Below, piece by piece: positions 2,641 through 63,528 of a stretch of DNA of 64,000 nucleotides; position 1 is the stretch's first letter, and each line of letters begins with the position of its first letter. This stretch comes from an uncultured Candidatus Saccharibacteria bacterium (GTDB taxonomy: Bacteria > Patescibacteriota > Saccharimonadia > UBA4664 > CAZOQX01), in contig CAZOQX010000001.1 in NCBI GenBank assembly GCA_964582465.1, forward strand, positions 89,214 through 153,213, read 5' to 3'. The notes below the pieces were generated by a model that saw only the letters and a list, made by a program, of their open reading frames with translations, was not told the DNA's origin and searched no databases. The translations under genes were made by a program, and so were the position numbers.

Positions 2641-2705
2641 CTGCTTAGCTACGCACAGCCCGAGTTGCTAAAGCGGCTACCTAAACCTTACAATCCAAGA
2701 GGTGT

Positions 2706-2780
2706 GGGCCTGTAGCTCAGCGGTAGAGCGGCACTCTTATAAGGTGTTGGTCGATGGTTCGAATCCATCCGGGCCCACCA
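2706..2780 (+). tRNA. tRNA-Ile with anticodon UAU
   Basis: Cloverleaf folded by hand. Acceptor GGGCCTG/CGGGCCC, discriminator A and encoded CCA. D-arm GCTC-AGCGGTA-GAGC. Anticodon loop CTTATAA (anticodon TAT). T-arm GATGG-TTCGAAT-CCATC. Acceptor and D-arm match the bacterial tRNA-Ile consensus. Confidence 0.7.
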
Positions 2781-2817
2781 GTTTTACAATCTGGAGCCTA
2801 AGAACTATGATTATGAC

Positions 2818-6156: not shown

Positions 6157-6231
6157 CGCGGGGTGGAGCAGTAGTAGCTCGTCGGGCTCATAACCCGGAG
6201 GTCGGTGGTGCAATTCCACCCCCCGCTACCA
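6157..6231 (+). tRNA. Initiator tRNA-fMet (anticodon CAU)
   Basis: Anticodon loop CTCATAA. Three consecutive G-C pairs at the base of the anticodon stem (TCGGG/CCCGG). 1:72 mismatch (C:U) in the acceptor stem CGCGGGG/CCCCGCT. Encoded CCA. Confidence 0.85.
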
Positions 6232-25800: not shown

Positions 25801-26238
25801 TGAGAATTGCCAACTGGCACCAGCGCCATTAAATGTAACATCAGTTGATGCCCCTAAATTTTTAGCCACGAAATCAACGATCTGTTGGGTCGTAGAGGTA
25901 GATATAAAACTGATAGTAAGAGCCCCCACTGCCGTATAGGTCATACCTGCCGAGAACTTTAGGGCTACGTTCCCTGCGCCAGCCGTTGCATCCCCAATGC
26001 TCAAGACAAAGGCGTTATGGGTCAACGTTCCACCGTAGTTACCAGTTCCCGAAGTACAATCTAAAGAACGGCAGGCGGAAGTAGCATCGATCGTGACGTT
26101 GCCGCTTCCCAATTCAAAGATCACATTATCTGAGGCGGTTGGCGGCCCCGCACTGTCTGCCCCCCCAGATCCTGTTGCGGACCACGTACCCGCCGCAGAC
26201 CAGTTACCACCCGCGGCTTTGGCATAAAGTGTAGCCAT
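22834..26238 (-). CDS. Giant paralogous beta-helix-like protein (1134 aa) with CBM4/9-like and LamG-like lectin inserts, paralog 2
   Basis: CBM-like segment (...ATFYVDGMMFEQNSSASTWVVGG). LamG-like jelly-roll segment (LWLKADQYSGSNGDPVSTWQDQSGNGFDVTQ...RFDGVNDDM...). Conserved N- and C-terminal modules. Confidence 0.8.
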   Translation of the reverse strand: MATLYAKAAGGNWSAAGTWSATGSGGADSAGPPTASDNVIFELGSGNVTIDATSACRSLDCTSGTGNYGGTLTHNAFVLSIGDATAGAGNVALKFSAGMTYTAVGALTISFISTSTTQQIVDFVAKNLGASTDVTFNGAGASWQFSSGVTCRNLTLSAGTLDTNGQTCSWNTFAHSLSTTAVLTLGASAITLTSSSNSAFLVNATLLTVSANTSTWTLSAGGFNVSNALNMNGASFTLNGSAITLAGTASFILANLTVNGPATLTGSVALGGSGIYVSGTLTLAGNSVTNRLIVQSNTVGTMRYLAYGTTLTTSNVDFADILMFKNSAYTAGGNIMRVADSSFETLSIGSWSFNSNNSTSNIALTGAVSTEVTPWQGTYCMKLTTSGSVSLQGMWEYVMGKAQGLVDAQSDTAYTFSAYVQAAAGTPLRVAVCDFCNNGTVYTGTGTATGLGTWDRLSVSFTSGHNPSPTLGNAIMLGVSTNAAVAATFYVDGMMFEQNSSASTWVVGGTATTPVDLSAITGKSGDAGGNGGMTFTPAATQTATGTASFTWSTHGWTTRVPLPQDNVVVNNAFVAGRSVTMDMPRLGKSLDFSGATGSPTLSLTGAPILYGSLTLGAGVGTAFGTGINLQLQGRGTYTITMAGHAMAGTATTTIAAPGGNYTLQDDFDMGINRNLVIAVGTTFSANNHNVKATTITFQGQTAITMGAGIWTVNSTGTVWTAATTMVSLNSGTSTISLTGQGIVDKTFAGGGWSYNILRYAQDTPQALSFTGANTFNKIIVSGQGQKTLIFPVSQVTTVNQSITTIGPGSTNPAIIVPTSIAGCKLWLKADQYSGSNGDPVSTWQDQSGNGFDVTQSGTARPTYTTNVMNGMASMRFDGVNDDMVMPAGLVAAMAGNDVPCVVFVVARATNTASNKDIIGLGGVSNIYLFAITNGTQFGQTRAGDDGVTRTDRYTPLDTDPHIFTSYWAADSGFSRKDGAQVTNPVAMVNNTATFTSGRIGARNNDSEFFVGDIFEVLIYNQALTIPNLSSIEYYLANRWGLDSQRTHIYSTVSGTPATIALGTSGTWVSSYNSIQDITVTGTRTPVLAYHGTNVSGNTGFDFTTKRPSATPHSSASTRSLSAPRTLSSTRTGAS

Positions 26239-37845: not shown

Positions 37846-38334
37846 ATGGAAGGACACGGAGAAGAACCACAGGATTCAACTGAGCATCCTGATTTAGCCG
37901 ATATTCGCCACGAGTATGGCTACATGGAAGAGGAGCTGGAGGCTTCGGCAAGGGAGACTAAGTTAGCTGCTGCGGCTGAAATAGTCGAGTCGCTTAAGGA
38001 TCTGCCCGAAGAGCTTGGTTTTGCTGAGGGACCGAGTTTGGACGCTCTTAGAGCAAGGGTTGTGGAGATAGGTCGGGTAGGCGGGGAAGTGGCCAAACTA
38101 GCCGAAGCCTATCGCATTCAGGCTGAGATTGAAGTGGGCAAGCTAGTCGGTGATGCTTACCTGCGGGCTCAAATTGGTTTTGCCGTCAGGATGGCACTAA
38201 TTTGGCAAGCGGCCGGGGAATTGGACCTCTTTGCCGAAGACTTAAGTGATGCCTATTTTTATGCTTATAACGCTAGGCTCGATGAGGTGGCCGTGCTGTT
38301 AGAGCAGGCCATTCAGCTTTATAACGAGGCCTAA
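37846..38334 (+). CDS. Acidic hypothetical protein (162 aa)
   Basis: ATG at 37846 after the dnaJ stop. The upstream ORF-track start overlaps dnaJ and is unlikely. Highly acidic, helical. Confidence 0.45.
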   Translation: MEGHGEEPQDSTEHPDLADIRHEYGYMEEELEASARETKLAAAAEIVESLKDLPEELGFAEGPSLDALRARVVEIGRVGGEVAKLAEAYRIQAEIEVGKLVGDAYLRAQIGFAVRMALIWQAAGELDLFAEDLSDAYFYAYNARLDEVAVLLEQAIQLYNEA

Positions 38335-38405
38335 AGTTTGCAAAAATCAGATCACAAGTGTAACTTTTAAGCACGAACATTGAAATGTGATCAAGGGGGC
38401 TTGCA

Positions 38406-38440
38406 GGGCCAAACGAGTATCGTTCGGCCCGGTTTTCGTT
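38406..38440 (+). terminator. Intrinsic terminator
   Basis: GGGCCAAACGA-GTA-TCGTTCGGCCC stem (one mismatch), followed by GGTTTTCGTTT. Confidence 0.6.
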
Positions 38441-38471
38441 TGGCTTTGCAAGCGCTTGACTGGAGGCTACC

Positions 38472-38645
38472 GTGGCACTAAGTAGCACTTTGTATGTACG
38501 GCTGCCAGACGATCTGTACAACAGACTCAAGTCCCACTGCGACAAGGATGATCGGTCTCTGGCCAGCGCCACACGCAGGGCCGTGAGGGAGTATCTCGAC
38601 CGACATGAGGAGAGGGAGGAACGACGAGATGGCCAAGCGGTATGA
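38472..38645 (+). CDS. Ribbon-helix-helix (CopG/ParD-like) antitoxin-like small protein (57 aa); not in the ORF track
   Basis: GGAGG RBS, 5-nt spacer, GTG start. Translation VALSSTLYVRLPDDLYNRLKSHCDKDDRSLASATRRAVREYLDRHEEREERRDGQAV. High-GC. Overlaps the next gene by 17 nt. Confidence 0.6.
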   Translation: MALSSTLYVRLPDDLYNRLKSHCDKDDRSLASATRRAVREYLDRHEEREERRDGQAV

Positions 38646-38880
38646 CGAAGAGATCGCCGTGGAGGTCGCCACCACCGGGGGTATCCCTGCTTCGTTCAAA
38701 TGGCGGGGGCGGACCTACCAAGTGGTCGATGTAATCGGCCGCTGGCGGATCGAAGGCAGGTGGTGGGATGATGGTCGCGATCGCGAGTACTGGCGGGTGG
38801 AAGCCCGCGGCGGGGCGGTCTGGGATCTCTACCTCGACCGTACCACCAATGTTTGGACGCTCGAGCGGCTCTGGGACTAG
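38629..38880 (+). CDS. Hypothetical Trp/Arg-rich protein (83 aa), second gene of the high-GC cassette
   Basis: ATG inside the 3' end of the RHH gene. MAKRYDEEIAVEVATTGGIPASFKWRGRTYQVVDVIGRWRIEGRWWDD... No known toxin fold recognised. Confidence 0.5.
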   Translation: MAKRYDEEIAVEVATTGGIPASFKWRGRTYQVVDVIGRWRIEGRWWDDGRDREYWRVEARGGAVWDLYLDRTTNVWTLERLWD

Positions 38881-38890
38881 GGAGGTTCGA

Positions 38891-39649
38891 ATGGAACGCT
38901 ACTACATCGACGTACCCAGTTTCGTCTTCCACGGCTGGTCGCGCTGGCAGCCCGATTGGAAGCACTGGGCGGCCGGCTTCAACGTCCGCATGGGAGCCGA
39001 CATCGATGTCTTCGCCGGTGCCGCGGTACAAGAAGAGTCCGAGCGGGGCTTCCACTTCAGCGACTCCATTTCTCACCGCGTGCGCTTCCTGGATGTGCCG
39101 TGGAAACATCACGGTGAGTCGGCGCCGGTGACTTACCTCGATCACCAGATCTGGCTCACGCTGGACAGCCTCATTCGTGAGCACGGTTTGGACGAGGCCA
39201 TCCGGGTCTACCTCGCCAGCGGCGAGGGACAGCTTCCTGAGCTGGTCGGCGCCCCATCGCGCTGGGGCGGGCGGACGCTCCGCGTACCGGTGGATTTCAT
39301 CAGGATCTCCCGGATCGTTTCGTCGTGGCAGCACAGGTACGAATCCGTCGTCGCCACCATCGAGGTCGGCCACCATTTGGTGCTCTGGGAGGTCGAGGTC
39401 ATGCCCGCGGGTCAGCGGCCGACTCCCAAACCTGGTCTGGCGCCGGACGGACCAATCCGCGGTGGTCTACGCGACCTGATCGAGCGGCTCTACCTCAAGG
39501 ATCCGGCGGCCGTCCAGGCTATCGCCGAGCGGCACGAGTACGGCGGCAGAGACCCACGAGATCGCACGTTCACATACGCAGCTCCCGGGGTCGATCCCAA
39601 GAGCACGCCGCCGGCGCTCGAGTTCCTCCAGCCGGTCGCGGCGGGATAG
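38891..39649 (+). CDS. Hypothetical protein (252 aa), third gene of the high-GC cassette
   Basis: GGAGG RBS 5 nt before the ATG, 10 nt after the previous stop. High-GC codon usage. No recognisable domain. Confidence 0.55.
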   Translation: MERYYIDVPSFVFHGWSRWQPDWKHWAAGFNVRMGADIDVFAGAAVQEESERGFHFSDSISHRVRFLDVPWKHHGESAPVTYLDHQIWLTLDSLIREHGLDEAIRVYLASGEGQLPELVGAPSRWGGRTLRVPVDFIRISRIVSSWQHRYESVVATIEVGHHLVLWEVEVMPAGQRPTPKPGLAPDGPIRGGLRDLIERLYLKDPAAVQAIAERHEYGGRDPRDRTFTYAAPGVDPKSTPPALEFLQPVAAG

Positions 39650-39760
39650 GCGCTGGACATGTTCTACCGGGGTGGGTGGCTTTACGCTGCCCGCCCCGGA
39701 TTCGTTATTATCGACTTCAAGACGCAAGGGTTGTAAAATAATGGTATAAGCATTAGCACA

Positions 39761-41080: not shown

Positions 41081-41413
41081 ATGGCAGAGAGTATAAAAAT
41101 ACTGGTGTATCCAGCTAAGGACTTAAATGCAAGCAAGACATTCTTTAATACGTTTTTAGGCACCGAGCCCTACGCCGATGCGCCTTATTACGTTGGCTAT
41201 AAGACGGATGGGCTAGAGGTTGGCTTGGACCCGAATGGTGAGGCGGTGATTGCCTATATTGAAGTGGAAGACATCAAAGCAAGTCTGCAAACTTACCTGA
41301 GTGCGGGTGCTAGCCTGCACCAAGATGTCAAAGACGTTGGCGGCGGCCTGCTAATTGCTCAGGTTAAAGATGCCAACGGTAATGTTCTTGGCCTAAGACA
41401 ACAGCCTAAGTAA
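41081..41413 (+). CDS. Glyoxalase/bleomycin-resistance (VOC) family protein
   Basis: 110 aa. Beta-alpha-beta-beta-beta module pattern. GGAGG RBS. Confidence 0.6.
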   Translation: MAESIKILVYPAKDLNASKTFFNTFLGTEPYADAPYYVGYKTDGLEVGLDPNGEAVIAYIEVEDIKASLQTYLSAGASLHQDVKDVGGGLLIAQVKDANGNVLGLRQQPK

Positions 41414-41414
41414 T

Positions 41415-41490
41415 CTGGAGGGCCATCCGGGATTCGAACCCGGGACACGAGGCTTAAAAGGCCCCTGCTCTGCCAACTGAGCTAATGGCC
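41415..41490 (-). tRNA. tRNA-Lys (anticodon UUU)
   Basis: Reverse complement folds as GGGCCAT-TA-GCTC-AGTTGGCA-GAGC-A-GGGGC-CTTTTAA-GCCTC-GTGTC-CCGGG-TTCGAAT-CCCGG-ATGGCCC-T-CCA. Confidence 0.85.
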
Positions 41491-41624
41491 CGCGAAGGGC
41501 ACTCCATATCCTATTATATATTGCTAAAGGCTTCAATGCTGGTATTAAACTGCTTGTGCTTGGACATAGGCAAGACTATTATGAAAGCACAAGCACCTTG
41601 TTGGAAGAATCAGGAGGCGCGGAG

Positions 41625-41972
41625 ATGGCCGAAACGGTCCAATTCGAACAGCCGTGCCCGGGTTGCTCTGGCACGTTGATCCTGGGAGCGGGTAGCGAGA
41701 TCTACCTGTTTCGCGATGGTCCCCAGTTCAACTACATCTTCTCGCCTCCCTGCGACGACTGCAGCCGGCGCGTCATGGTCTTCGGGGCGGCTGACTGGAT
41801 CGTTCAGCTGATGGGAGTGGGCATCGAGCCCAAGTGGGAGGACACCGCGGGGCGCTGGGTCCAGGCCGAATGCTTCGAGGCCACCTTCGCTGCCCAGCTC
41901 AGCCAGGTCGAGCTCAGCCCGCTCCTGTTGGAGCATCAGTACTGGGGAGGATCACCGAGCGTCGTTACCTGA
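41625..41972 (+). CDS. Hypothetical CxxC...CxxC zinc-ribbon-like small protein (115 aa) in a high-GC island
   Basis: AGGAGG and GGAG RBS before the ATG. CPGC and CDDC pairs. GC-rich codons. Confidence 0.5.
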   Translation: MAETVQFEQPCPGCSGTLILGAGSEIYLFRDGPQFNYIFSPPCDDCSRRVMVFGAADWIVQLMGVGIEPKWEDTAGRWVQAECFEATFAAQLSQVELSPLLLEHQYWGGSPSVVT

Positions 41973-42186
41973 TCAACAGGGTTGCTAGCGTCACCGCGAC
42001 AAGTGGTGGCGCTTCGCCCCGAGTCTTGAAGGAAACTTAAAGATTTAGGGCGAAAGGATTAAATAATCCGCCTTTTATAGTTAGTTTCGGTCGGGATGCC
42101 GTAGATATCGTGCGCAAGTGTTTCTATACTTGGCCAGTACAGTTCCCGAGTCTCACCCTAGCGGGTGGGAGAAAGGAGGCGGACGC

Positions 42187-42573
42187 ATGGGCGACCGCAA
42201 CGCGCAGGGACTCGAGCAGCTCATCCGGCACCCGAAGGTGCTGCAGTGGGCGCGCGACGAGGTGGGAGTCGACTCGCTGTTCATCGAGCCGAGGACCTTC
42301 GGTCAGCCCACCGGGGCGACCACCAAGGGCAGCTCGAGCGGCACGGTCTCCGATCCGGAGACGTCCTACATGCTGAAGGGCGGGATGGGTGGCCAGGAGA
42401 TCTGCATCGGGGGCATCCTCGACCTGGTCACGGCCGTCTCCAGCTTCCGGGACGCGATCGGGTACACCGGGCAGATCGGCCAGCTGACCTACCAGCAGCT
42501 GCTGCAGCAGGTCGAGGTGGCCCAGGAGGAGGGGGCCAGATCGACCTCCGGCGCCCACTCCACTCGCCGCTAG
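42187..42573 (+). CDS. Hypothetical protein (128 aa) in a high-GC island
   Basis: AGGAGG RBS 7 nt before the ATG. GC-rich. No recognised family. Confidence 0.45.
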   Translation: MGDRNAQGLEQLIRHPKVLQWARDEVGVDSLFIEPRTFGQPTGATTKGSSSGTVSDPETSYMLKGGMGGQEICIGGILDLVTAVSSFRDAIGYTGQIGQLTYQQLLQQVEVAQEEGARSTSGAHSTRR

Positions 42574-42594
42574 CTCTGCGCACAACTCGGGACA

Positions 42595-42630
42595 GGGCCT
42601 CTCCGCAAGGAGGGGCCCTCCTCGTTTTTT
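42595..42630 (+). terminator. Strong intrinsic terminator
   Basis: GGGCCTCTCC-GCAA-GGAGGGGCCC 10-bp stem followed by TCCTCGTTTTTT. Confidence 0.8.
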
Positions 42631-42655
42631 GAAATCTTGGGGTCTTCATCTACTA

Positions 42656-42723
42656 TTGACAAAATTAAGCGTTAGTGGTATTATTCAAACCTAGTTGACA
42701 GTTTATGAGGTTTTCCTCATAAT
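42656..42723 (+). promoter_or_regulatory. Two tandem consensus-like promoters with a palindromic operator: TTGACA-N17-TATTAT and TTGACA-N17-CATAAT; palindrome ATGAGGTTTTCCTCAT in the second spacer
   Basis: P1 has -35 at 42656..42661 and -10 at 42679..42684. P2 has -35 at 42695..42700 and -10 at 42718..42723. Inverted repeat at 42705..42720. A third TTGACA at 42738. Confidence 0.5.
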
Positions 42724-42842
42724 TTTTGAATTGTTAATTGACATCTCCGGCTTGGGAGCCTTGCTGCCTACTTGTTAGGCGGCAGCGCTCCCAGGCTGGA
42801 ACCATTCTGGTGACAGCCGCGTACAGAAAGGAGGTCTCCGCT

Positions 42843-43019
42843 GTGAGGCCGATCTTCTTCGCGATCCCGACCATGGGGCCGCCGGGCGACCACGCCCACA
42901 CGGCGCCCAAGAGCGCGAGCTTCCAGAAGATGATGCACATCGACGTCGACGTGGCCGGCCGCGACCGCGGATCCGGGATCGAGATCGCCGGCGGCGCCGG
43001 GGCCCTCGAGACGGGCTGA
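42843..43019 (+). CDS. Small peptide gene (58 aa), high-GC
   Basis: AAGGAGG RBS, 8-nt spacer, GTG start. (V)RPIFFAIPTMGPPGDHAHTAPKSASFQKMMHIDVDVAGRDRGSGIEIAGGAGALETG. Alternative internal ATG (MGPPGD...). Confidence 0.4.
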   Translation: MRPIFFAIPTMGPPGDHAHTAPKSASFQKMMHIDVDVAGRDRGSGIEIAGGAGALETG

Positions 43020-43252
43020 CCTCATCGTGAGGTCGCTCTCGGGTGCGAGCCCGAGGGACCCCGGCAACGCGTCCACCGCTGTGCGCAATCGACGCGCGCA
43101 GCCTGACAGGAAGGAGAGGTCGAGCCAATGCGGTTCCACTTCCTCATAGGCTAGGCGACTAGGGCGCCGGCCGGGAGAAAACCGGCTAAGGCGCTATAGC
43201 AGCTCCTTTCCATGCAGGGCGTCATCACCCTCCCAGCAGGAGGACCTGTGCG

Positions 43253-43276
43253 GGGGGACCGCTTCGGCGGTCCCCC
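43253..43276 (+). other. Perfect 10-bp hairpin with TTCG tetraloop (GGGGGACCGC-TTCG-GCGGTCCCCC) in a structured non-coding region
   Basis: Read directly from the sequence. No T-tract follows. Part of a ~320-nt GC-rich non-coding stretch (43020..43340) with several hairpins. Confidence 0.6.
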
Positions 43277-43293
43277 TCGCGGGGCAACACGAA

Positions 43294-43328
43294 GCCACGT
43301 TCAATTCGAACGTGGCTTTTCGCTTTTG
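43294..43328 (+). terminator. Intrinsic terminator
   Basis: GCCACGTTC-AATTC-GAACGTGGC then TTTTCGCTTTTG. Confidence 0.8.
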
Positions 43329-43360: not shown

Positions 43361-44803
43361 TTGGAGGGTCTATGCCCTCCTATGCATTTCAAACGCACTA
43401 CACTCGTAAGCTTATTCCTCGCCGCCACCTTAGGCGGCTTGCTGTTCGCCAAATTCGGTTGGCGCCTTAGTCCTTGGTGGCTGCCAGCTCCGCTAATCTT
43501 GTTTTCCAAACCTCTACGTCGTTCTAAAATTCTGGTGCCGGGCTTAATTCTTACCGGCCTGGCCATTGGTTTAATCCGCGGAAACGTTGCTCTCAAATCC
43601 GAGCGCGCCGTCCAGGGCTTGGTGGGCCAGAAGGTTAGCTTGGTTGGTCGGATTGCTGATGACCCCACCCAGCCCGAGACTAAGAGCTACGCGAGTTTTT
43701 CGCTCAACAATCCCCGCCTAAGTGGCCGCACGCTTCCTGGTCATTTCTACATCATTAGTTATGACACCAAGTTGAGACGATCCGAGCAAGTGGCAGTGTA
43801 CGGAAAACTGCGCCCGGGTTTTGGTAGTTTTCAAGCCGAGTTAATCGCCTCAACGACCCAAGTGCTTGATAGACGGGTGAGCTGGCTGGAGCAATTAAGG
43901 CGTAGCTTCTTTGTGGGCATGCAAACCGCCTTACCGGAGCCGCTAGGAGGGCTAGCCATCGGACTATTGGTTGGCAGCAAATCACTCCTACCCAAAACCC
44001 TACAGGCGGAGCTAACGGCGGTGGGGCTCGCCCACTTAATTGCGGTGTCGGGCTATAACTTAACCATTATTGTAAACGCGGTCCGAAATTTGCTCAGGCG
44101 CGGCTCGAAGTTCATGCGAACGGCCGTATCGGGCTGGCTGATCGCAGGCTTTGTGATTGTGAGCGGGGCGAGCCCCTCGATACTGAGAGCGGCAGTGGTA
44201 GCAGGCCTAATGCTCGCGGCGGATTACTACGGCCGGGCTGTTCGTCCCCTGGTCTTAATTTTGCTGGCAGCCGCGGCGACTGCTTTTATTAATCCGGAGA
44301 ATTTATGGCGTGATGTCGGCTGGCAACTATCCTTCCTGGCCTTCTTTGGCATCTTGGTAATCGCGCCAATTTTTACGGCTAAGCTCCACGGCCGGGCCAT
44401 CTTTCTTAAACAGATCGCACTCGAATCTTTGGCGGCTCAAATCATGACACTACCGCTGATATTGGTAGTTTTCGGTCAGCTCTCCGTGGTCTCGCCGCTG
44501 GCGAACTTATTGATATTACCGCTCGTGCCTCTGGCCATGCTCTTTAGCATGATCGCAGGCCTAGCCGGAATGCTCTGGCCGCTTGGCTCGGGGTGGTTGG
44601 GTTGGCCGGCGCTGATTTTGCTCGAAGTAATGTTAAGCGTGGTGGGGATACTGCACCAGCCGCACTGGGCTAGTTTGCAGCTAACTGCCGCCTGGCCAGC
44701 CGCTGTTGCAATTTATGCTTGCTTTGTAGCATGTCTACTTATGCGGCAGTGGTCGAACGGGCGGAATCTCAAGCAGTTTAGTATAATTGAAGGTGATAAA
44801 TAA
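43361..44803 (+). CDS. comEC: Competence protein ComEC/Rec2 (membrane channel domain only; no metallo-beta-lactamase domain)
   Basis: Multi-TM. Competence-domain hallmark AVGLAHLIAVSGYNLTIIV. 480 aa is short for ComEC. The true start may be M8 (43382). Confidence 0.75.
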   Translation: MEGLCPPMHFKRTTLVSLFLAATLGGLLFAKFGWRLSPWWLPAPLILFSKPLRRSKILVPGLILTGLAIGLIRGNVALKSERAVQGLVGQKVSLVGRIADDPTQPETKSYASFSLNNPRLSGRTLPGHFYIISYDTKLRRSEQVAVYGKLRPGFGSFQAELIASTTQVLDRRVSWLEQLRRSFFVGMQTALPEPLGGLAIGLLVGSKSLLPKTLQAELTAVGLAHLIAVSGYNLTIIVNAVRNLLRRGSKFMRTAVSGWLIAGFVIVSGASPSILRAAVVAGLMLAADYYGRAVRPLVLILLAAAATAFINPENLWRDVGWQLSFLAFFGILVIAPIFTAKLHGRAIFLKQIALESLAAQIMTLPLILVVFGQLSVVSPLANLLILPLVPLAMLFSMIAGLAGMLWPLGSGWLGWPALILLEVMLSVVGILHQPHWASLQLTAAWPAAVAIYACFVACLLMRQWSNGRNLKQFSIIEGDK

Positions 44804-54916: not shown

Positions 54917-55455
54917 CTGGTTGCCCCCGGCTTAAAGGCGATGTCGAGTTGGGCCTTATAGGCTCCGGCACTAGGGTTGGTAATATTTTCGATATCGACC
55001 CCCTGGACGCGTTTGGATGACGCTAGGGCATCGCGGAAACCGCTGATGGCGGCAAATGAATTAGCCGTGACGGTAATTTGTGAAGGTTTCTTGTTGTCAG
55101 AGGATAGATTGAGTGAATCCCATGACACCCCGGCCGGAGTCAGTGTGGCTAGCTCCTGCAAGAGGGTAGAAAAGTGAGTTTGGCCTTGTTGGACCTGAGA
55201 AATTGCCTGCAACTGGTCCTGTAAATTCTTAGCATTCTGCTCAGTCGTGCTATACGTCGCGATCTTAGCCATGCGGTCAGCAAGATCGTGAGCCGCCTGG
55301 TCGAGCCGGTGTTTTACAAACCAATCGGATCCGGTCACTACCAAGGCGAGCACAATAGCTGCAATTATCAGTGCCCGGAAGTAGCGCACGAGGGTGGCGT
55401 TGCGCTTGGCGAAGGCTATTTGGTTCTTGAGTTCGGGAGGGAGTAGATTAATCAT
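54913..55455 (-). CDS. pilN: Type IV pilus assembly protein PilN
   Basis: MINLLPPELK N-terminus, diagnostic of PilN. TM, then coiled coil. Confidence 0.75.
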   Translation of the reverse strand: MINLLPPELKNQIAFAKRNATLVRYFRALIIAAIVLALVVTGSDWFVKHRLDQAAHDLADRMAKIATYSTTEQNAKNLQDQLQAISQVQQGQTHFSTLLQELATLTPAGVSWDSLNLSSDNKKPSQITVTANSFAAISGFRDALASSKRVQGVDIENITNPSAGAYKAQLDIAFKPGATR

Positions 55456-56518
55456 AGCCCAACCCCTTCATGGCGAGACCGATGGCGGTGTGATAGTGCG
55501 CCCGCTCGGTTTTGGGCGTCTTATCCGTAGTGAGTTTGTCCCAGGGGTCAAAAGCTAAGGCTGCGAGTCCCGTCGCCTGGGCCAGGTAGTCGGCTAGGCC
55601 AGGTACGGCAGCGCCATCTCCAGTTAAGATCAGGCCTTCAAGGCCAGCTCTATTGCCAGAATGATCTTTAAAGTAGTTTGTAACTCGCTTGGCTTCTGCT
55701 GCCACTTGGTCAAGCGAGTCGGCGCTAGCTTGCTTGATCTTGGGCAGCAAATCGCTTGCGCCGAGGCCCAATTTAGTAATAACTTGGCGGCTTTTGGTGT
55801 TGGTTAGCCCTAGTTTTTGCTCTACATTCTTAATAACCGATTCAGTTCCAATACTGACACTACCGGTGACCCTGATGACGCCTGCGAGCACGGCCAGATC
55901 AATTGATTGGGCTCCAAAGTTAATGATGAGAACTGGCTTGGTTTTAGCGACCGCCAGCTGCGCAGCTCGCGCCAGGGCGGCTAAACTAATCTCGATGACT
56001 TCAACTTCGAGCTCAAGCAGGTCGAATAGTTGGATATAGGAATCAACAATCGCTCTGGGAGTGGCGACTAGCAGGATTTCTTGTTGCGGTGCATCTTTTG
56101 TCTTGGGATCTACCGGTTTGGCACCAATTACAGTGTAGTCAATGTAAAGGTCATTGACCGGCACTGGAATATACTGCTCAGATTGGAGTTTGATTGCGCT
56201 GCTGAGCTCGGTCTTTGTCATCGGCGGCAGTTCAATCGTGCGGACAAAGGTCTTTGCGACTGGCAGTGAAGCTGCAACCCTGCGGGCGGAGAGTTTGCCT
56301 ACGGCTGCTTTTTCCAGGAGCGGCTTTACGACTTGAGCTATAGCTTGGGGGTCGGAGATAATGCCCTCCAAGATCACATCAGGTGAAAACCTCGCAGATC
56401 CGTAGCCCGCTACTTTTAAGCCATGATGGCTCTGCTCGAGCTGCATGAGCTTAACTTCTTCCGGGCCAATATCGAAGCCCAAAATCGGCTGAGGTTTGTA
56501 TACTAGTGGTACGCGCAT
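55448..56518 (-). CDS. pilM: Type IV pilus assembly ATPase-like protein PilM
   Basis: Actin-like fold motifs (ILGFDIGPEEVKL ... LTGDGAAVPGL). 356 aa. Confidence 0.85.
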   Translation of the reverse strand: MRVPLVYKPQPILGFDIGPEEVKLMQLEQSHHGLKVAGYGSARFSPDVILEGIISDPQAIAQVVKPLLEKAAVGKLSARRVAASLPVAKTFVRTIELPPMTKTELSSAIKLQSEQYIPVPVNDLYIDYTVIGAKPVDPKTKDAPQQEILLVATPRAIVDSYIQLFDLLELEVEVIEISLAALARAAQLAVAKTKPVLIINFGAQSIDLAVLAGVIRVTGSVSIGTESVIKNVEQKLGLTNTKSRQVITKLGLGASDLLPKIKQASADSLDQVAAEAKRVTNYFKDHSGNRAGLEGLILTGDGAAVPGLADYLAQATGLAALAFDPWDKLTTDKTPKTERAHYHTAIGLAMKGLGYD

Positions 56519-57945: not shown

Positions 57946-58622
57946 TTGTTCCTCAGGCTGGCAATAGTGGTGAAGCTGCTGGTCAAGGTCTGCCCACCCG
58001 ATGTTTTAGTTTGCTTTAGGGTGACTTTAACTGCCTCTGTCCCGCTGGGCGAAGTGACAGGATTATTGGAGGCATCATAATATTGGGTCACGAGGTCGGC
58101 CACATCTTCCACCACCTTGGCGTCGGCTGGACAGCTCGCTGTAACGGCACTGGGCGGGCAAGTCGTAATGGCTGTGTTGCCTGGAGCGCCCGGATTAGCC
58201 AGGGTGCGGCGATAAAGAATTCTAGTAGTAGGGTCAATGAAATAGATCACATCGTTGACATACGGGGTATTGTGTTGGCCATCGATGTAGAGGATATTAC
58301 CGCTCGTGTTGTGAGCCGGGACCGCCAAAATTAAAGTGGCATTATCGCCGGAGGCAGCCGACCAGCTATACAAGTTGCTCGGCGCGCCTGGGGCATGCTG
58401 ATCAGCTAAGGAGTTGGATGCTTCAACGCCGCGAGCTGACCGAATGGTATCCGAGGTAGTTAGCACTGCTTGTTTTGTATTATTCTGGATAATCGTGATG
58501 GTTTGTTGTCGAGCCAAGTTGGCCAGAACTTTGCCTATAAATTGGCCCATAATCAAAACCATAATGGATGTGACCGCGAGAGCGACCAGGAGCTCAAGTA
58601 AGCTGAAACCACGCTCGCTCAC
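57942..58622 (-). CDS. Minor pilin with prepilin-type N-terminal cleavage/methylation domain
   Basis: MSERGFSLLELLVALAVTSIMVL class III signal. Confidence 0.7.
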   Translation of the reverse strand: MSERGFSLLELLVALAVTSIMVLIMGQFIGKVLANLARQQTITIIQNNTKQAVLTTSDTIRSARGVEASNSLADQHAPGAPSNLYSWSAASGDNATLILAVPAHNTSGNILYIDGQHNTPYVNDVIYFIDPTTRILYRRTLANPGAPGNTAITTCPPSAVTASCPADAKVVEDVADLVTQYYDASNNPVTSPSGTEAVKVTLKQTKTSGGQTLTSSFTTIASLRNK

Positions 58623-59029
58623 TTGTTAATTCCTCGGCTGGCAATTAATGTTGCCACGGCGATATTTTTGGTACTCCCAGCTTCAGTGTAGGCGACGTTT
58701 ATCACAACCTTTTTTAAACTGCCGGCTTGTATTTCCGTGATAGTAGCAGTCGCTGATCTCGGTGTGTGCAGAGATGGGTAGGGGCTGAGTTGGCTGATCA
58801 AGTCCACTGTTCCGACTGGAATTGAATTGTATGGTGTGTTGCGGTAGACCTCTTCTTGCTGCTGGACCACCTGGGTGGCAATCGTGAGGTTCTTGGTTTT
58901 GTGATTAAGATTCTGGATGCCGAAGATGGCCGTGATTATTACGGAGACAATTACCCCCATCACGGCGGCGGCAACTATAAGCTCTAATAGGGAGAAACCG
59001 GCTTGAGGGGCCCACCTCGATTTGCGCAT
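58619..59029 (-). CDS. Minor pilin with prepilin-type N-terminal cleavage/methylation domain
   Basis: ...QAGFSLLELIVAAAVMGVIVSVI class III signal. Confidence 0.7.
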   Translation of the reverse strand: MRKSRWAPQAGFSLLELIVAAAVMGVIVSVIITAIFGIQNLNHKTKNLTIATQVVQQQEEVYRNTPYNSIPVGTVDLISQLSPYPSLHTPRSATATITEIQAGSLKKVVINVAYTEAGSTKNIAVATLIASRGINK

Positions 59030-59081
59030 GTTCTTATTTTAGCGTAAGCGTTTTGATTAAGCTAATGGACTAAAAAGGCTG

Positions 59082-59115
59082 AGGGCCGCCAACTCGGGTG
59101 AGTTGGCGGCCCTCA
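59082..59115 (-). terminator. Intrinsic terminator for the dnaN-like gene (perfect 15-bp stem)
   Basis: GAGGGCCGCCAACTC-GGGT-GAGTTGGCGGCCCTC. On the minus strand it is followed by AGCCTTTTTAG. Confidence 0.65.
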
Positions 59116-59131
59116 TGGGCGCTCGGGTGTC

Positions 59132-60238
59132 CTAGCCCACCGGAGCTGGTATGCGGACGGGCATCACGATGTAGGTGAAGTCCGCGCTTTCGCCGCGAAT
59201 GACGCCCGGCTTCAGGCCGTCGCGAACCTGAATGGTCGCCTCATCATCACCAACTGCCAGTAGGCCGTCGGCGAAGTAGCCAGGGTTGAAGGCCACCGTC
59301 ATGTCCTCGCCTTCGTAGGTACCCTCGATGGCCTCGATGGCGTTGCCGAGGTCGGGCGAAGAGGAGGTCAGGCGGACGCCGAGAGCGTTGAATTCGAACC
59401 GCAGCGGGGTGTTCTCACGGGCCAGGATGCCGACTCGGTGCACGGCCGCGAGCAGGTCTCGCCGGTTGACCCTGAGCTGGTTCTCGTAGTGGTCGGGGAG
59501 CAGCTGCCGGTAGTTCGGGAACTGTCCCTCGATCAGGCGGGTGGACATGGTGAAGTCTCCACCCTCGAACCAGGTTTGGCTCGAGCCGAAGTACAGCTTG
59601 ATGTTACTCTTCGCGTCCAGGTCACCCGCCACCCGGCTCATCTCGCCGATGGCGCGGTTGGGAATGATGCAGGAGCTGTTGCTGGCGCCATCGATCGGGA
59701 GCATTCGTACGGCCAGTCGGTAGCTGTCGGTCGCGGCGAAAGCGAGCTCGCTGCCGCTCAGTTCCAGCAGGACGCCAGTCAGGGTTGGCCGGGCTTCGTC
59801 CCTGCTGGCGGCACGGGCTACCTGGGAGACGGCCAGACTGAAGTCGGCGGCCGGTACGGTGAGGATGATCCCGTCTGGTCTCTGCCAGCTCGGGAAGTCC
59901 TCGGACGGCAGCAGCCGTACCACGCCTTCGTAGGCCTGGCACAGGATGCTCGCTTGGCCTCCGTCGGCGGTGAAGGTCACCACCGCCTGGGGCAGTAATT
60001 TGACGATCTCACCGAGCAGCCTGGCCGGGATCAGCGCGACGCCGGCTTCTTCGACCTGTACGGCCAGGTTCAGCCGTGTGCTCACCTCGAGATCGGTGGT
60101 GGTCAGGACCAGCCCTCCGTCCTCGGTCGCTTCGATGTAGACGCCGGTCAGAGCTGGGATGCCGGGGCGATTGGACACGCCCCGTTGCACCGCAGCCAGA
60201 GCCTCGGCCAAGTCGTCGCGGTCTGCGCGGAACTTCAT
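59132..60238 (-). CDS. dnaN: DNA polymerase III beta subunit (sliding clamp) paralog of actinobacterial type, in a high-GC island
   Basis: MKFRADRDDLAEALAAVQRGVSNRPGIPALTGVYIEA...TDSYRLAVRMLP...EGQFPNYRQLLP...MTVAFNPGYFADGL...YIVMPVRIP closely parallel Mycobacterium-type DnaN. AAGGAGG RBS before M13. About 64 % GC. Confidence 0.85.
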   Translation of the reverse strand: MKFRADRDDLAEALAAVQRGVSNRPGIPALTGVYIEATEDGGLVLTTTDLEVSTRLNLAVQVEEAGVALIPARLLGEIVKLLPQAVVTFTADGGQASILCQAYEGVVRLLPSEDFPSWQRPDGIILTVPAADFSLAVSQVARAASRDEARPTLTGVLLELSGSELAFAATDSYRLAVRMLPIDGASNSSCIIPNRAIGEMSRVAGDLDAKSNIKLYFGSSQTWFEGGDFTMSTRLIEGQFPNYRQLLPDHYENQLRVNRRDLLAAVHRVGILARENTPLRFEFNALGVRLTSSSPDLGNAIEAIEGTYEGEDMTVAFNPGYFADGLLAVGDDEATIQVRDGLKPGVIRGESADFTYIVMPVRIPAPVG

Positions 60239-60399
60239 GCTGGGCGCCTCCTTCTGGAGTTGTGGGGTACGCACCTCTTAATAACCAACCGTACAATTTC
60301 TATGAGTTACTCGCAAGCATAAGTGTTGAGGTTGGCGTTAATATTCGTCGGAGTGTATAAATGTAAAACGAAGGTGTGAACCTACACAAGTGAGGAGTT

Positions 60400-61503
60400 G
60401 TGGCCAAAACCGAAATCCAGTTCTTTCCGGAACGGCTTACAGTGGTAACGGAGCGTCTCTACGCCAACTACGAGCAGAAGGGCTATCCCTACAACCGTCC
60501 TGATGCCGTGCTGCCACAGGACTTCGTGCCGCCGCGCTTGGTGCGCGGTGGCAGGGAAGAGGCACTTTACTTCTTCTACCTGTGCATTTACATGCGCATG
60601 CAACAGAGTAACGTCGCGGCGCGCAAAATGGCTGAGATCTATGACATGGAGTTGTGGGAATACTCCCACGGTGGCAACATCTTTGAGCCAGCCGATGCCG
60701 CTAGGATGGATCCCGTGCAAGTGGGAGAATTCATGCGTGCCAATGGGCTGGGCCAGTTCTACAAGACCAACCCGGGTTACTGGGTGCAGAATTCGGCCAT
60801 GCTGATGCAAGAATGGGATGGGGACCCTCGTAACATGTTTGCGAACATTCGCACATACGAAGACGCGCTCAAACATGTGCGGAAGTTCCGGGGATTCGAC
60901 AAAAAGATGACCAGCATGATCTTGTATTTCATGATGGATGTTGGTCTGATGGAGCCCTTCATATTTCCAATCCCAGTTGATTTCCATGTTCAACGTATCG
61001 CCGCCGAAACCGATTCGGTGACATGGCCATACGGTGTGCAGCCTGGAATCACGAATGATCGCCTGGGTGATCTTTTGCGGCCGTTCTTCCAGGATTACGC
61101 AGAGGAGCATGGTGTTAGCCCTTTGCGCTTGGCTGATGTGCTGTGGTTACATGGCAGCTTGATGTGCGAGGACAATCCGGGCAACCGTACCCACGCGGGC
61201 GAATACAATGCTCGTTCTACGCATATCCAGCCCCATCACGTTACCTGGAAAAGGGCTGAGGTTGCTTCGTTCATGCGGTCGTGCGCCCAATGCCCGGTGC
61301 GGAAGCTTTGCACCACCAATGTACCCTCAGAGTACAACTCTACGCTGGGAAAAATTGTACGGGATTCACCGCGCGAAGAGCCTCCTTCCGATTGGTATGG
61401 CGCGTTTGAGTCTACGTTCGAACCAAACGTGGCGACCACTCCAAGCGCCCCAAAGGCTACCAAGGTTCAGCCCCCTCCTTCCGATCATCCCACCCTGTTC
61501 TAG
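60400..61503 (+). CDS. HhH-GPD superfamily DNA glycosylase-like protein with C-terminal Cys cluster (367 aa), high-GC
   Basis: FRGFDKKMTSMILYFMMDVG...PIPVDFHVQRI parallels the EndoIII/MutY helix-hairpin-helix lysine and VDTHVxRV catalytic-Asp region. SCAQCPVRKLC (C-x2-C-x5-C). Confidence 0.45.
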   Translation: MAKTEIQFFPERLTVVTERLYANYEQKGYPYNRPDAVLPQDFVPPRLVRGGREEALYFFYLCIYMRMQQSNVAARKMAEIYDMELWEYSHGGNIFEPADAARMDPVQVGEFMRANGLGQFYKTNPGYWVQNSAMLMQEWDGDPRNMFANIRTYEDALKHVRKFRGFDKKMTSMILYFMMDVGLMEPFIFPIPVDFHVQRIAAETDSVTWPYGVQPGITNDRLGDLLRPFFQDYAEEHGVSPLRLADVLWLHGSLMCEDNPGNRTHAGEYNARSTHIQPHHVTWKRAEVASFMRSCAQCPVRKLCTTNVPSEYNSTLGKIVRDSPREEPPSDWYGAFESTFEPNVATTPSAPKATKVQPPPSDHPTLF

Positions 61504-61619
61504 CCGCCCCGACTGCCGTGTACGCGATGGTCGGGGCGGTTCTCATTATTATCATTAGCGAAAATGCTTGAGCTAACGAAAGCACGAGCGTAATATTAAA
61601 GTACTTACGGCTACACGAG

Positions 61620-62972
61620 GTGGAAGTAAGTCGCACGTTGAATTCTGACGTGCCCGAGACTATGAAGGGGGTGAATCCCTTGGTGGCTCGTCGCGACGAG
61701 ATGGAGCAGTTGGCGCCGCCCCTCAGGGGGCACCCCGATCTCCACATCGTCAAGTCGATCTCAACATCGGCGCCTCGACGACGGCGCAATTCACTGGTTA
61801 ACCAGAAGCATCGCCGCTTGCCTGTTGCTTGCACCAACGTACTGGCGCAAGAGCGAGAGGCAACCGATCCGGAGCACATTCAGGGCATCGCCAGCAACAT
61901 GGAAGAGCTAGGCATGCTCCAGGATCCGATGGCCATCATTTTCACCGAACGCACGGCACTCGAGCGCTATCTGAAATATTGGAACGCGCTCTACGCCGAT
62001 CGTGAGGTCAGTGAAGGGGTCTTCTGGCATCGTGAAGTGGAAGACTTGGTCGAGTGGACGGGGCACCCCGGCTGCTGGATCATCTTAGTCTTCGGTGAGC
62101 ATCGCTACTCAGCCCGAGTGCTGCAGGGGCGGAAGTGGATCGAAGTCAAGGTCCGCTACAACGTCCGCCCTCGCCGTGGCGCCGACATCCAGGTTTCAGA
62201 AAACAGCGCCAAGATTCCGGCACCGGAAGAGCGCGCCAAGTATCTCGACAAGTGCTGGCGCATGGACCAACTGTTGGCTCACCCGCCCACTCTCAAGACC
62301 TTCGCAAACAAGAAGAAGGTGAGTGAGCAGACCGTTCGCGACGCCATCCGGTACAGCCGGCTCCCCCAGTGGGTGGAGAAGGACCATGTCAAGAAGGGCC
62401 ATATCCGCTACCGGCACGCTGTGGAGATTGCTCGACTTGTTGGCACCGAGCACGACGAGAACCGGATGCATTACTACATCCAGCGCACCATTGTCGGTGG
62501 CTGGAAGCCGGAAGACCTGGCGAAGAAGATCAGTGAGTACCTGAAGAACCTGAAGCAGAACAGCTTCGCAATGATGGTTCAGGACCCGAGCGATGATCGT
62601 CACATCCGTGCCCTCATCGCGCGTCGTGACCTTAGGGCCACTCGCGAGGGATTGCGCTGGGCCAAGGGAGTCACCAAGGCTATCCAAGACGGCACGTTCG
62701 ACAATGTTCTGGTACCGCGAAGCGTCAGCCGTTTCCAGTATGAGCTCGCCGAGCATCTGCTGCAGGCGCTACCGCACTCGCCCAAGGGTCGGGAAGCCAG
62801 CGAGGCCATCAGGCGTGCCATGGACGACTTCCTGGTTCCGCTGCATGCGGAGATCTCGGCGCTGCTTGCCGCCAACCCGGTCGATATCGCCGAGCACGAG
62901 CGGGCTCTCATCGCTGCCGACGACGACGTGGAGAAGATCCACGCCCTCGCCGTCCTCGGAACAACCTCGTAA
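61620..62972 (+). CDS. ParB/Srx-like nuclease domain protein with C-terminal HTH (450 aa), high-GC
   Basis: ParB N-domain-like IQGIASNMEELGMLQDPMAIIF and ILVFGEHRYSARV (GERR-box-like). HTH-like KKKVSEQTVRDAIRYSRLPQWV. The true start may be an internal Met. Confidence 0.5.
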   Translation: MEVSRTLNSDVPETMKGVNPLVARRDEMEQLAPPLRGHPDLHIVKSISTSAPRRRRNSLVNQKHRRLPVACTNVLAQEREATDPEHIQGIASNMEELGMLQDPMAIIFTERTALERYLKYWNALYADREVSEGVFWHREVEDLVEWTGHPGCWIILVFGEHRYSARVLQGRKWIEVKVRYNVRPRRGADIQVSENSAKIPAPEERAKYLDKCWRMDQLLAHPPTLKTFANKKKVSEQTVRDAIRYSRLPQWVEKDHVKKGHIRYRHAVEIARLVGTEHDENRMHYYIQRTIVGGWKPEDLAKKISEYLKNLKQNSFAMMVQDPSDDRHIRALIARRDLRATREGLRWAKGVTKAIQDGTFDNVLVPRSVSRFQYELAEHLLQALPHSPKGREASEAIRRAMDDFLVPLHAEISALLAANPVDIAEHERALIAADDDVEKIHALAVLGTTS

Positions 62973-63061
62973 CGGGGCGTTTTGCCACATCCAGTGGTGA
63001 AGCGCCCCAACGCGTTTTATGCCTAAGTTTGTAATCATCTTTATCTAAGTCAAATTTAAAC

Positions 63062-63088
63062 AAAAACTCCGGCGAACCGGAGCTTTTG
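63062..63088. terminator. Bidirectional intrinsic terminator between the ParB-like gene (+) and pilA (-)
   Basis: AAAAA-CTCCGG-CGAA-CCGGAG-CTTTT. Confidence 0.6.
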
Positions 63089-63105
63089 CGTGAAGGACCT
63101 AACTG

Positions 63106-63528
63106 TTATTGAGCTTGGCTTGTAACCTCGTAGGTCGCGGGCGGAACGTTGATCTGTTTGTCGCTGGTGTTCTCCAGCGTCGCGTCTAGCTTGTAGCTAG
63201 TACAGTCGGTTCCGGTACAACCGGCGGGGGTGTAAACGTAGCTTTGACCGCTCTTCGGGTCGCTGGGCATAGCCTTAATGTACTTTGGTGTCAAAGTACT
63301 AGAGAGGCCAGCGTAGTCACCGGATGGGTAGGCCTCGTTATCAGCGTGATACGCTTCCAACGCGGTCTGGGTCTGGCGCAGGTCATTCTTACGCTGAGCG
63401 TCACGAGCCCGTTGCGGGCCGGAAGCTAGATTGGGAACGATCAAGACGGCCAAAATACCGATGATCACAATGACGACCAGAAGCTCGAGCAGCGTAAAAC
63501 CGCCTTGCTTCTTGAGTGCTCTAAGCAT
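63106..63528 (-). CDS. pilA: Major type IV pilin (PilA-like)
   Basis: MLRALKKQGGFTLLELLVVIVIIGILAVLIVPNL prepilin leader. Cys pair near the C-terminus. AAGGAGG RBS. The longer ORF-track start is unlikely. Confidence 0.8.
   Translation of the reverse strand: MLRALKKQGGFTLLELLVVIVIIGILAVLIVPNLASGPQRARDAQRKNDLRQTQTALEAYHADNEAYPSGDYAGLSSTLTPKYIKAMPSDPKSGQSYVYTPAGCTGTDCTSYKLDATLENTSDKQINVPPATYEVTSQAQ

Follow-up and report, generated by a model that had tools for sequence, protein, structure and literature searches.

A solitary sliding clamp gene of actinobacterial type beside a glycosylase-like and ParB-like gene pair in the type IV pilus locus of a Saccharibacteria contig

The subject of this analysis is a group of three genes lying between the type IV pilus genes of an uncultured Candidatus Saccharibacteria bacterium, on contig CAZOQX010000001.1. 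The window, by which we mean the whole stretch of DNA that was analysed, is 64,000 nucleotides (nt) long (positions 89,214 to 153,213 of the forward strand of the contig), and all coordinates given below are those of the window unless another contig is named. An earlier note made from the sequence alone had singled out the region 59030-63000 as one high-GC island. The three genes, which encode a beta sliding clamp (dnaN), a glycosylase-like enzyme and a ParB-like protein, were found where that note had placed them, and the pilus genes on both sides were confirmed, pilA and a minor pilin gene by their N_methyl domains and pilM further downstream. Our reading of the locus, to which we give a probability of roughly 0.6, is that it is composite, that is, a solitary xenologous clamp gene next to an unrelated base-excision-type module whose enzyme would be tethered to a sliding clamp and assisted by the ParB-like protein. 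The features of the locus, with lengths in amino acids (aa), base pairs (bp) or nt, G+C content as GC and expect values as E, are the following.

58619..59029, minus strand: minor pilin gene, the first gene of the downstream pilus operon (N_methyl, E 5.1e-5)
59080..59115, minus strand: hairpin resembling an intrinsic terminator just 3' of dnaN, with a perfect 16-bp stem
59132..60238, minus strand: dnaN, beta sliding clamp, 368 aa (TIGR00663 and three Pfam clamp domains)
60239..60274, minus strand: GC-rich leader of dnaN with the Shine-Dalgarno-like sequence GAAGGAGG (read from the sequence)
60275..60399, no strand assigned: AT-rich divergent spacer between dnaN and the glycosylase-like gene, 39.2 % GC (composition)
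60400..61503, plus strand: gene for an N-glycosylase-like protein of predicted HhH-GPD/QNG1 fold, 367 aa (fold and conserved residues)
61504..61539, plus strand: 10-bp GC-rich inverted repeat CCGCCCCGAC ... GTCGGGGCGG with a 16-nt loop, followed by a T-rich run (read from the sequence)
61620..62972, plus strand: gene for an orphan ParB-fold protein, 450 aa as called (PHROG match, relatives and fold)
63060..63089, no strand assigned: hairpin in the gap where the ParB-like gene and pilA converge, terminator-like on either strand
63106..63528, minus strand: pilA, major pilin (N_methyl, E 1.7e-8, and a T2SSG match)

The base composition of the region is a mosaic. The window has a mean GC of about 52 % and the region 59030-63000 one of 58.9 %. 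The earlier note had described a uniform block of about 64 % GC between flanks of about 50 %, but the flanks measure about 51-52 % and only the segment 59080-60274, a piece of about 1.2 kb made up of dnaN with its leader and terminator, reaches such a level, at 65.4 %. Fine-scale GC steps at about 59080 and about 60275 bound this segment; to the left of 59080 the GC falls at once to 33-45 %, and past about 60275 it goes from 0.62 down to 0.42 or less. What is strongly foreign thus comes to about 1.2 kb, a single gene together with its leader and terminator. The coding sequence (CDS) of dnaN has 65.1 % GC and a GC at third codon positions (GC3) of 82.4 %, the 367-aa glycosylase-like gene is host-like at 54.5 % GC, and the 450-aa ParB-like gene is intermediate at 60.0 % GC with a GC3 of 75 %. 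Against a background of the 39 other genes of the window, whose GC3 is 0.566 with a standard deviation of 0.041, dnaN has a GC3 z-score of 6.3, the ParB-like gene one of 4.5 and the glycosylase-like gene one of 2.0. The notion of a single high-GC import of about 4 kb does not survive this mosaic.

The clamp gene was expected to encode a full-length protein of Mycobacterium type, and it does. DnaN matches the equivalog model TIGR00663 over its full length (E 6.9e-82; 275.3 bits, cut-off 137.65), with PF00712, PF02767 and PF02768 all above threshold, and mycobacterial clamps head its matches among the PDB sequences with 170-184 bits, the E. coli clamp scoring 145. The length of 368 aa is counted from an ATG; the program that listed the open reading frames (ORFs) gives 380 aa from a GTG at 60274. 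In a search of 5.8 billion proteins the best matches other than the protein itself were 59-66 % identical, and the named ones among them were labelled as metagenome-assembled genomes (MAGs) of "Actinomycetota bacterium". The two closest homologues lie on contigs of 70-71 % GC in the order rpmH-dnaA-dnaN-recF-DciA-gyrB-gyrA, and the nucleotide similarity of the window dnaN to these two donor-type loci, 69-70 %, is limited to the CDS. The window gene shares with the chromosomal dnaN (TIGR00663) of such uncultured high-GC Actinomycetota its full length and its three clamp domains, but it is solitary between pilus genes, outside any dnaA-dnaN-recF(-gyrB) cluster and with pilin genes and the glycosylase-like gene for neighbours, and its GC3 is 82 % compared to 91-95 % in its closest relatives.

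The window DnaN also stands outside the sampled clade of its relatives. It is 59-66 % identical to all of its 117 best homologues, that is, at most 66 %, whereas these are at least 72 % identical among themselves, with a median of 78 %. It keeps 168 of the 194 near-invariant columns of this clade of 117 homologues (87 %) and differs at 26. Its identity to outgroups is close to the mean of the clade, for example 43.5 compared to 44.3 % for Acidimicrobiia, 29.7 compared to 30.8 % for Ammonifex and 29.9 compared to 31.5 % for the clamp of Jorgensenbacteria, a member of the Patescibacteria; these near-equal values argue that the gene is not decaying. The simplest reading of these comparisons is that dnaN is intact and normally constrained and that it comes from a lineage, not yet sampled, that is sister to the Actinomycetota MAG clade. 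The Patescibacteria clamp, at about 30 % identity, is no nearer to it than to the actinobacterial clamps.

That the clamp is xenologous, as the earlier note had proposed, is supported by its identity of 59-66 % to Actinomycetota MAG proteins taken together with the nature of the host. The DnaK encoded in the window matches E. coli DnaK from end to end, and its match to the Geobacillus and M. tuberculosis proteins starts about 100 residues into the query with an offset of about 23-25 residues, a pattern consistent with an insert that Firmicutes and Actinomycetota are not known to have. The gene content of the window, rich in pilus and ComEC-type genes, fits Patescibacteria, and the two non-clamp genes have their closest named relatives in that group. 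All this makes an actinobacterial host very improbable, and the clamp, being of actinobacterial type, would be foreign to the organism. The plasmid and phage collections searched hold clamps that are at most 35 % identical to the window DnaN, so that no vector can be named; a mobile vector was considered and rejected on this ground and because flanking repeats are missing. A replication origin at the dnaN site was ruled out as well, there being neither a cluster of DnaA boxes within the window nor a switch of skew. Protein P0002 was tried as a closer relative of DnaN and rejected, since its high score comes from an internal duplication and it adjoins dnaA. We also observed, at positions 1719-3344 of the locus L061 (JGI contig Ga0484305_00372797), a dnaN of 541 aa beside dnaA in which the first 1.5 clamp domains are duplicated, either as a real internal duplication or as an assembly artefact.

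The junctions of the dnaN segment bear on whether the segment belongs to this genome at all. The window proteins that were looked up are all on one NCBI contig of 157,252 bp, and Logan contigs from the run SRR9179560 served as a partly independent check by k-mer assembly. The first of these, L001 (2275 nt), is identical to window positions 58010-60284 and contains dnaN, its terminator and two pilin genes without a break, which supports the left junction as real. The second, L002 (4503 nt), starts at 60260 and contains the 367-aa gene, the 450-aa gene, pilA and pilC. One could suppose that a high-GC dnaN segment of a co-occurring actinobacterium was misjoined to the contig: the GC step is abrupt, L001 and L002 meet at 60260-60284, which is the right GC boundary and where the deposited contig alone attests the join, and further patches of high GC occur in the window (38.3-39.7 kb and 41.4-43.3 kb). 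We hold such an artefact to be very improbable. L001 runs exactly over its 2275 nt from dnaN into two host-type pilin genes, both boundaries are intergenic, the gene is complete with leader and terminator, and the donor-type contigs continue with dnaA and recF, of which there is no trace here. With pilus genes of one locus on both Logan contigs, and with an insert that amounts to an entire gene unit set in intergenic DNA, a chimera is unlikely; the break between L001 and L002 could be a branch of the assembly graph, as caused by strain polymorphism for the insertion, or a drop in coverage.

The two other high-GC patches are observations in their own right. The patch at 38250-39700 rises to 64 % GC in windows of 1.2 kb and holds the gene of a 91-aa DUF6504 protein (38605..38880, E 2.3e-14) and a 293-aa ORF (38768..39649) with 65 % GC, a GC3 of 78 % and no Pfam match; it may be another small import from a high-GC donor. 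The patch at 41400-43300, with 60-63 % GC, starts directly beside a tRNA-Lys(UUU) gene (41416..41491, minus strand) and extends to comEC (43361..44803), and its ORFs have no Pfam matches. The tRNA-Lys gene was considered as an attachment site for this patch and dismissed, as no att-like direct repeat was found.

The 367-aa protein was recognized by its fold and by conserved residues. No Pfam or NCBIfam model matched it at E<=0.01, and the only signal was AGOG in Pfam at E 0.086, so the earlier description of an HhH-GPD glycosylase-like protein holds for the fold, which Foldseek retrieves, but has no curated HhH-GPD sequence model behind it. Six close homologues were found at 31-36 % identity, one of them belonging to a "Patescibacteria group bacterium" MAG and another carrying the JGI label endonuclease III, and a profile of the seven sequences gave a marginal match among the PDB sequences (E 0.043) to AGOG, the archaeal 8-oxoguanine glycosylase, at the PxPVD segment. 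The predicted structure is confident over residues 1-258, and the top 50 PDB matches of this model in Foldseek are HhH-GPD-fold proteins only, in agreement with a two-lobe helical HhH-GPD fold. A metagenome scan added 44 loci to the family. In all 30 distinct full-length members (30/30) the Lys of GFxGFxxK, the Asp, His and Arg of PxDFHxxR and four Cys are invariant, which in the window enzyme correspond to K169 (GFxxK), D194 (PxPVDFHxxR), C256, C295, C298 and C304. We infer that K169 and D194 are the hairpin Lys and the catalytic Asp of the superfamily, the sole residues that are invariant across HhH glycosylases and Qng1 (PMC9881137).

The Cys residues and the C-terminal tail set the family apart. 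The iron-sulphur (Fe-S) loop of Nth and MutY has the spacing C-X6-C-X2-C-X5-C. The window enzyme has C-X38-C-X2-C-X5-C, in a region where the predicted local distance difference test score (pLDDT) is below 50, and its four-Cys element is probably an Fe-S one. At the C-terminus of many members a sequence of the PPQLxLF type comes after a short linker that is basic or rich in Pro. The strict pattern Q[LIM]x[LIMF][FL] occurs in 8 of 30 tails and in none of 524 other 20-residue windows, and a relaxed clamp-motif pattern in 14 of 30 tails compared to 1.3 % elsewhere. The bacterial clamp-binding consensus is QL(S/D)LF and is usually C-terminal (PMC9690074), and the tail of the family resembles such a beta-clamp-binding motif. 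Compared to the HhH-GPD glycosylases endonuclease III, AGOG and Ogg, the window enzyme thus has no HhH-GPD Pfam match, a first Cys 38 residues upstream in place of 6, an extension at the N-terminus and a C-terminal tail of clamp-binding type, and it comes from a family in which a ParB-fold neighbour is frequent.

The 450-aa protein, for which an ATG at 61663 is an alternative start, escaped the curated models as well, with no Pfam or NCBIfam match even at E 10; it did match PHROG ParB-like families at E 5.6e-6 and 1e-5. A word-indexed search returned the protein itself alone, and an exhaustive search gave 163 relatives at E<=1e-3, the best at E 1e-19, with 25-31 % identity and mostly of 360-440 aa. 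In an aligned set of the query and 30 relatives, ParB_N was detected in 20/31 and HTH_ParB in 23/31. The structural model has a pLDDT of 77 and its Foldseek matches are Noc, ParB-CDP and KorB at E 5e-9 to 1e-6. Residues 159-165 read GEHRYSA (GxxRxxA), most relatives having GERRxRA, and G159, R162, Q191, E194 and N195 are invariant in the family. Sequence and model agree on an orphan protein with a ParB N-domain and a helix-turn-helix (HTH) fold, which looks like an NTP-binding, DNA-binding protein of the ParB/Noc/KorB type. The earlier note had called it a ParB-like nuclease with an HTH; the ParB N-domain and the HTH stood, and nothing specific points to a nuclease. With the CTP-dependent clamps ParB, Noc and KorB the protein shares the N-terminal ParB domain and HTH fold, GxxRxxA and the E-N pair; it differs in being longer (about 400-450 aa) with a distinct helical C-terminal region, in that the members linked to a glycosylase-like gene often have GH(R/S)R instead of GERR, and in that the fetched flanks of the pair loci (about 4-6 kb on at least one side) contain no parA. 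The search for the parA part of a ParABS system found no ORF with the motif KGGxGK[ST] in the window or in any pair locus, and no pair locus has a ParA-type Walker A ORF.

To see whether the three genes occur together elsewhere we relied on profile hidden Markov models (HMMs) of the enzyme, ParB-like and dnaN families, which were run on all fetched loci. There are 49 fetched loci with a relative of the glycosylase-like enzyme, and 14 distinct loci are informative, having 1.4 kb or more of sequence to either side of the enzyme gene. In 8 of these 14 the enzyme gene directly adjoins a ParB-like gene. Four arrangements occur, the ParB-like gene being co-oriented with the enzyme gene and either downstream or upstream of it, or else divergent from it or convergent with it. 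The enzymes of the pair loci are mostly only 26-40 % identical to each other, so at least 7 separate lineages, the window included, keep the adjacency. The pair and enzyme loci have 37-53 % GC and small, dense genes, one of them being a deposited Patescibacteria MAG, and the cluster of the closest ParB-like relative includes a protein of Candidatus Curtissbacteria. This recurrent adjacency across divergent loci argues for a two-gene module, functional or co-mobile, of Patescibacteria-like genomes, found in varied chromosomal contexts. The pairing was not found described in the literature searched. Hidden ParB-like genes in the unpaired loci were looked for and rejected, the neighbours there being a TrpRS/TyrRS-type synthetase, glutamate dehydrogenase, a reverse transcriptase, a PIN protein and ORFs with no match. 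As a separate observation, a reverse transcriptase, an HNH-like ORF or a PIN-domain gene lies beside the enzyme gene in some loci (L033, 7252-8202 and 4891-5670; L034, 7123-7530), which hints that it sometimes lies in variable or mobile regions.

The profile HMM scan found no dnaN in any of the 49 loci with an enzyme relative. This bears directly on the idea, raised in the earlier note, that the three genes are one accessory DNA-processing or defence module, carried in as a unit on the remnant of a plasmid or phage of a high-GC donor. In its favour, the three genes follow one another directly within the pilus locus, which they interrupt, two of the three have a raised GC, a clamp-binding-like tail in the enzyme family would fit a clamp for a neighbour, and an extra dnaN is common on actinobacterial plasmids and phages. 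The composition is nevertheless a mosaic with a host-like gene in the middle, and Actinomycetota top matches, which were to be expected for all three proteins, were obtained for DnaN only; the closest named relatives of the enzyme and of the ParB-like protein are from low-GC Patescibacteria. PADLOC gave no match for DnaN or the glycosylase-like protein and a single weak one, at E 0.028, for the ParB-like protein. A phage origin of the pair was rejected after IMG/VR scans with both family alignments returned no relatives, and plasmid and phage clamps stay at or below the 35 % identity already mentioned. Between 58.6 and 63.1 kb there is no ORF for an integrase or transposase, repeats flanking the borders are at chance level only, and no tRNA gene adjoins the borders, the nearest being at 41.4 kb. 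We consider a common arrival of the three genes highly unlikely and retain the composite locus, in which dnaN and the pair have separate histories.

A different alternative concerns the enzyme itself, which might be a QNG1-like nucleotide or nucleoside N-glycosidase serving base salvage in a host-dependent bacterium, the ParB-like neighbour then being functionally unrelated. The Lys/Asp pair is common to Qng1 and the DNA glycosylases (PMC9881137), and 6 of the 14 informative loci have no ParB-like neighbour. On the other hand, the window enzyme is about 10 % identical to QNG1, the queuosine-5'-monophosphate N-glycosylase of the DUF2419 family, and has no DUF2419 sequence match even at E 10. 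In Qng1 the DNA cleft is closed by beta-hairpin insertions (PMC9881137), of which the model of the window enzyme shows none, and the enzyme has four invariant Cys and a clamp-type tail, features undescribed for Qng1. By the profile, as well as by the insertions and the C-terminal tail that close the cleft, it falls outside QNG1/DUF2419. The C-X2-C-X5-C part of its Cys element is spaced like the final three Cys in the Fe-S loop of endonuclease III and MutY, the family conserves its tail of clamp-binding type, and lineages no more than 26-40 % identical still have the enzyme gene next to one for a DNA-binding ParB-fold protein. A salvage enzyme therefore seems to us unlikely.

Under the composite reading two unrelated items would occupy the same permissive gap between genes, with the self-contained pilA unit on one side and the minor-pilin operon on the other. 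The first would be a single-gene insertion of about 1.2 kb (59080-60274), an intact dnaN with its own ribosome-binding leader and its own terminator, whose donor would be a high-GC lineage, sister to the uncultured Actinomycetota clade with the dnaA-dnaN-recF origin cluster. It would probably be read from the AT-rich host spacer and would supply an extra, or possibly a replacement, sliding clamp. The second would be a two-gene module typical of Patescibacteria-like genomes, made up of the enzyme and an orphan ParB-fold protein. The ParB-like protein would bind DNA in an NTP-dependent manner and recruit or activate the glycosylase-like enzyme, by analogy with DpdA and the phage thymidine dioxygenases; the enzyme, anchored at the sliding clamp by its tail motif, would cleave an N-glycosidic bond in DNA and so remove, or exchange, a base. 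DpdA needs ATP hydrolysis by the ParB-fold protein DpdB to insert preQ0 into DNA (PMC10164549), and some phage thymidine dioxygenases require their cognate ParB (PMC13229309). As in these systems (DpdB/DpdA and phage ParB/5mYOX), a ParB-fold gene lies next to the gene of a presumed base-acting enzyme in the window pair. The window enzyme, however, appears to have an HhH-GPD fold and is neither a TGT-like transglycosylase nor a dioxygenase, there are no other dpd or hypermodification genes near the window pair, and pairs of this type are chromosomal in Patescibacteria-like genomes and not phage-borne. From the Dpd system the window further differs in having no TGT-like gene and a ParB-like protein of ParB/Noc type with an HTH and the motif GEHR, not DGQQR, so that the likeness would be in logic only.

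Several findings weigh against the composite reading. The raised GC of the ParB-like gene (60 %) is left unexplained by a simple model of a native pair. The best structural match of the enzyme is QNG1, a nucleotide hydrolase and not a DNA enzyme, and the tail of the window enzyme, ...PPPSDHPTLF, is a degenerate clamp motif. The window ParB-like protein has a His where its family has the second Arg of GERR. Its closest relative stands solitary among housekeeping genes with no enzyme neighbour, and this together with the 6 unpaired loci among the 14 means that the partnership is not obligatory. Finally, the right boundary of the dnaN segment coincides with the break between L001 and L002, which overlap there by 25 nt.

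The arrangement of signals around the genes is for the most part as it had been described. Both GC-rich terminator-like hairpins were found. The one at 59080-59115 has 11 G-C pairs, a loop of 4 nt and, on the dnaN strand, a run of T with the tail GCCTTTTTAG; the one at 63060-63089 forms 13 pairs when read on the minus strand and 6 on the plus strand. The glycosylase-like and ParB-like genes, on the plus strand, are divergent from dnaN on the minus strand, and the spacer between them, described earlier as an AT-rich divergent promoter region, is indeed AT-rich (39 % GC). It contains two promoter-like hexamer pairs on the dnaN strand (60380-60352 and 60367-60340), but such hexamers are not enriched there, 3 being found compared to 2.8 expected in shuffled sequence. 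The inverted repeat at 61504-61539 begins directly 3' of the stop codon of the glycosylase-like gene and is possibly a terminator; the terminator scan, which was limited to loops of at most 8 nt, accordingly did not report it. With this terminator-like repeat between them the two genes may be transcribed separately in the window, whereas a gap of 4 bp separates their counterparts in the closest Patescibacteria locus. On the pilus side, pilA has its own strong promoter-like site at 63608-63579 (11/12 positions match), and the minor pilin gene (136 aa, with a host-like GC of 49.6 %) is followed by pilM, the PilM_2 match being at 55448..56518.

Further observations concern other parts of the window. 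Six consecutive ORFs of 703-1134 aa lie on the minus strand at 12974-29000, with a GC of about 0.58 at second codon positions (GC2), above the value of about 0.44 at first positions (GC1). Two of the six were scanned and gave no Pfam matches, and the composition suggests surface proteins rich in Ser, Thr, Ala and Pro. A tRNA-Ile(UAU) gene, with an anticodon uncommon in bacteria, is found at 2706-2780, and there are two tRNA-Met(CAU) genes, at 6157 and 6353.

The transfer of the clamp gene adds a new instance to a known process. The enzyme/ParB pair has no annotation and is a variation on known kinds. As to the three-gene clamp, glycosylase and ParB system suggested in the earlier note, the scans reduce it to a pair, ParB-like genes recurring beside the enzyme and dnaN occurring in 0 of 49 enzyme loci, and the plasmid, phage or defence origin suggested with it was dropped after the PADLOC, IMG/VR and clamp comparisons and the inspection of the borders. 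One may go further and propose that the enzyme and its ParB-fold neighbour are an undescribed system of Patescibacteria-like genomes, tethered to the clamp and excising or exchanging a DNA base (for example a modified purine during replication), with the imported clamp kept as its dedicated or replacement platform; we regard this extension as quite unlikely.

For the biology of the organism, the locus would mean that a complete replication-clamp gene has moved alone across phyla into a seemingly reduced, host-dependent bacterium, and that it has done so within a pilus and competence neighbourhood (comEC lies at 43.4 kb). Such a transfer would be a clean, datable case of the exchange of core replication machinery, and it raises the testable question of whether a foreign clamp can function together with the resident replisome or take its place. 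The enzyme/ParB pair matters because it lacks a curated model. If the partnership is not a functional one, the "island" would be the coincidence of two ordinary events, which is still useful to know. If it is functional, activation by a ParB-fold NTPase would extend from transglycosylases and dioxygenases to the base-excision fold, and would do so in a poorly understood bacterial radiation.

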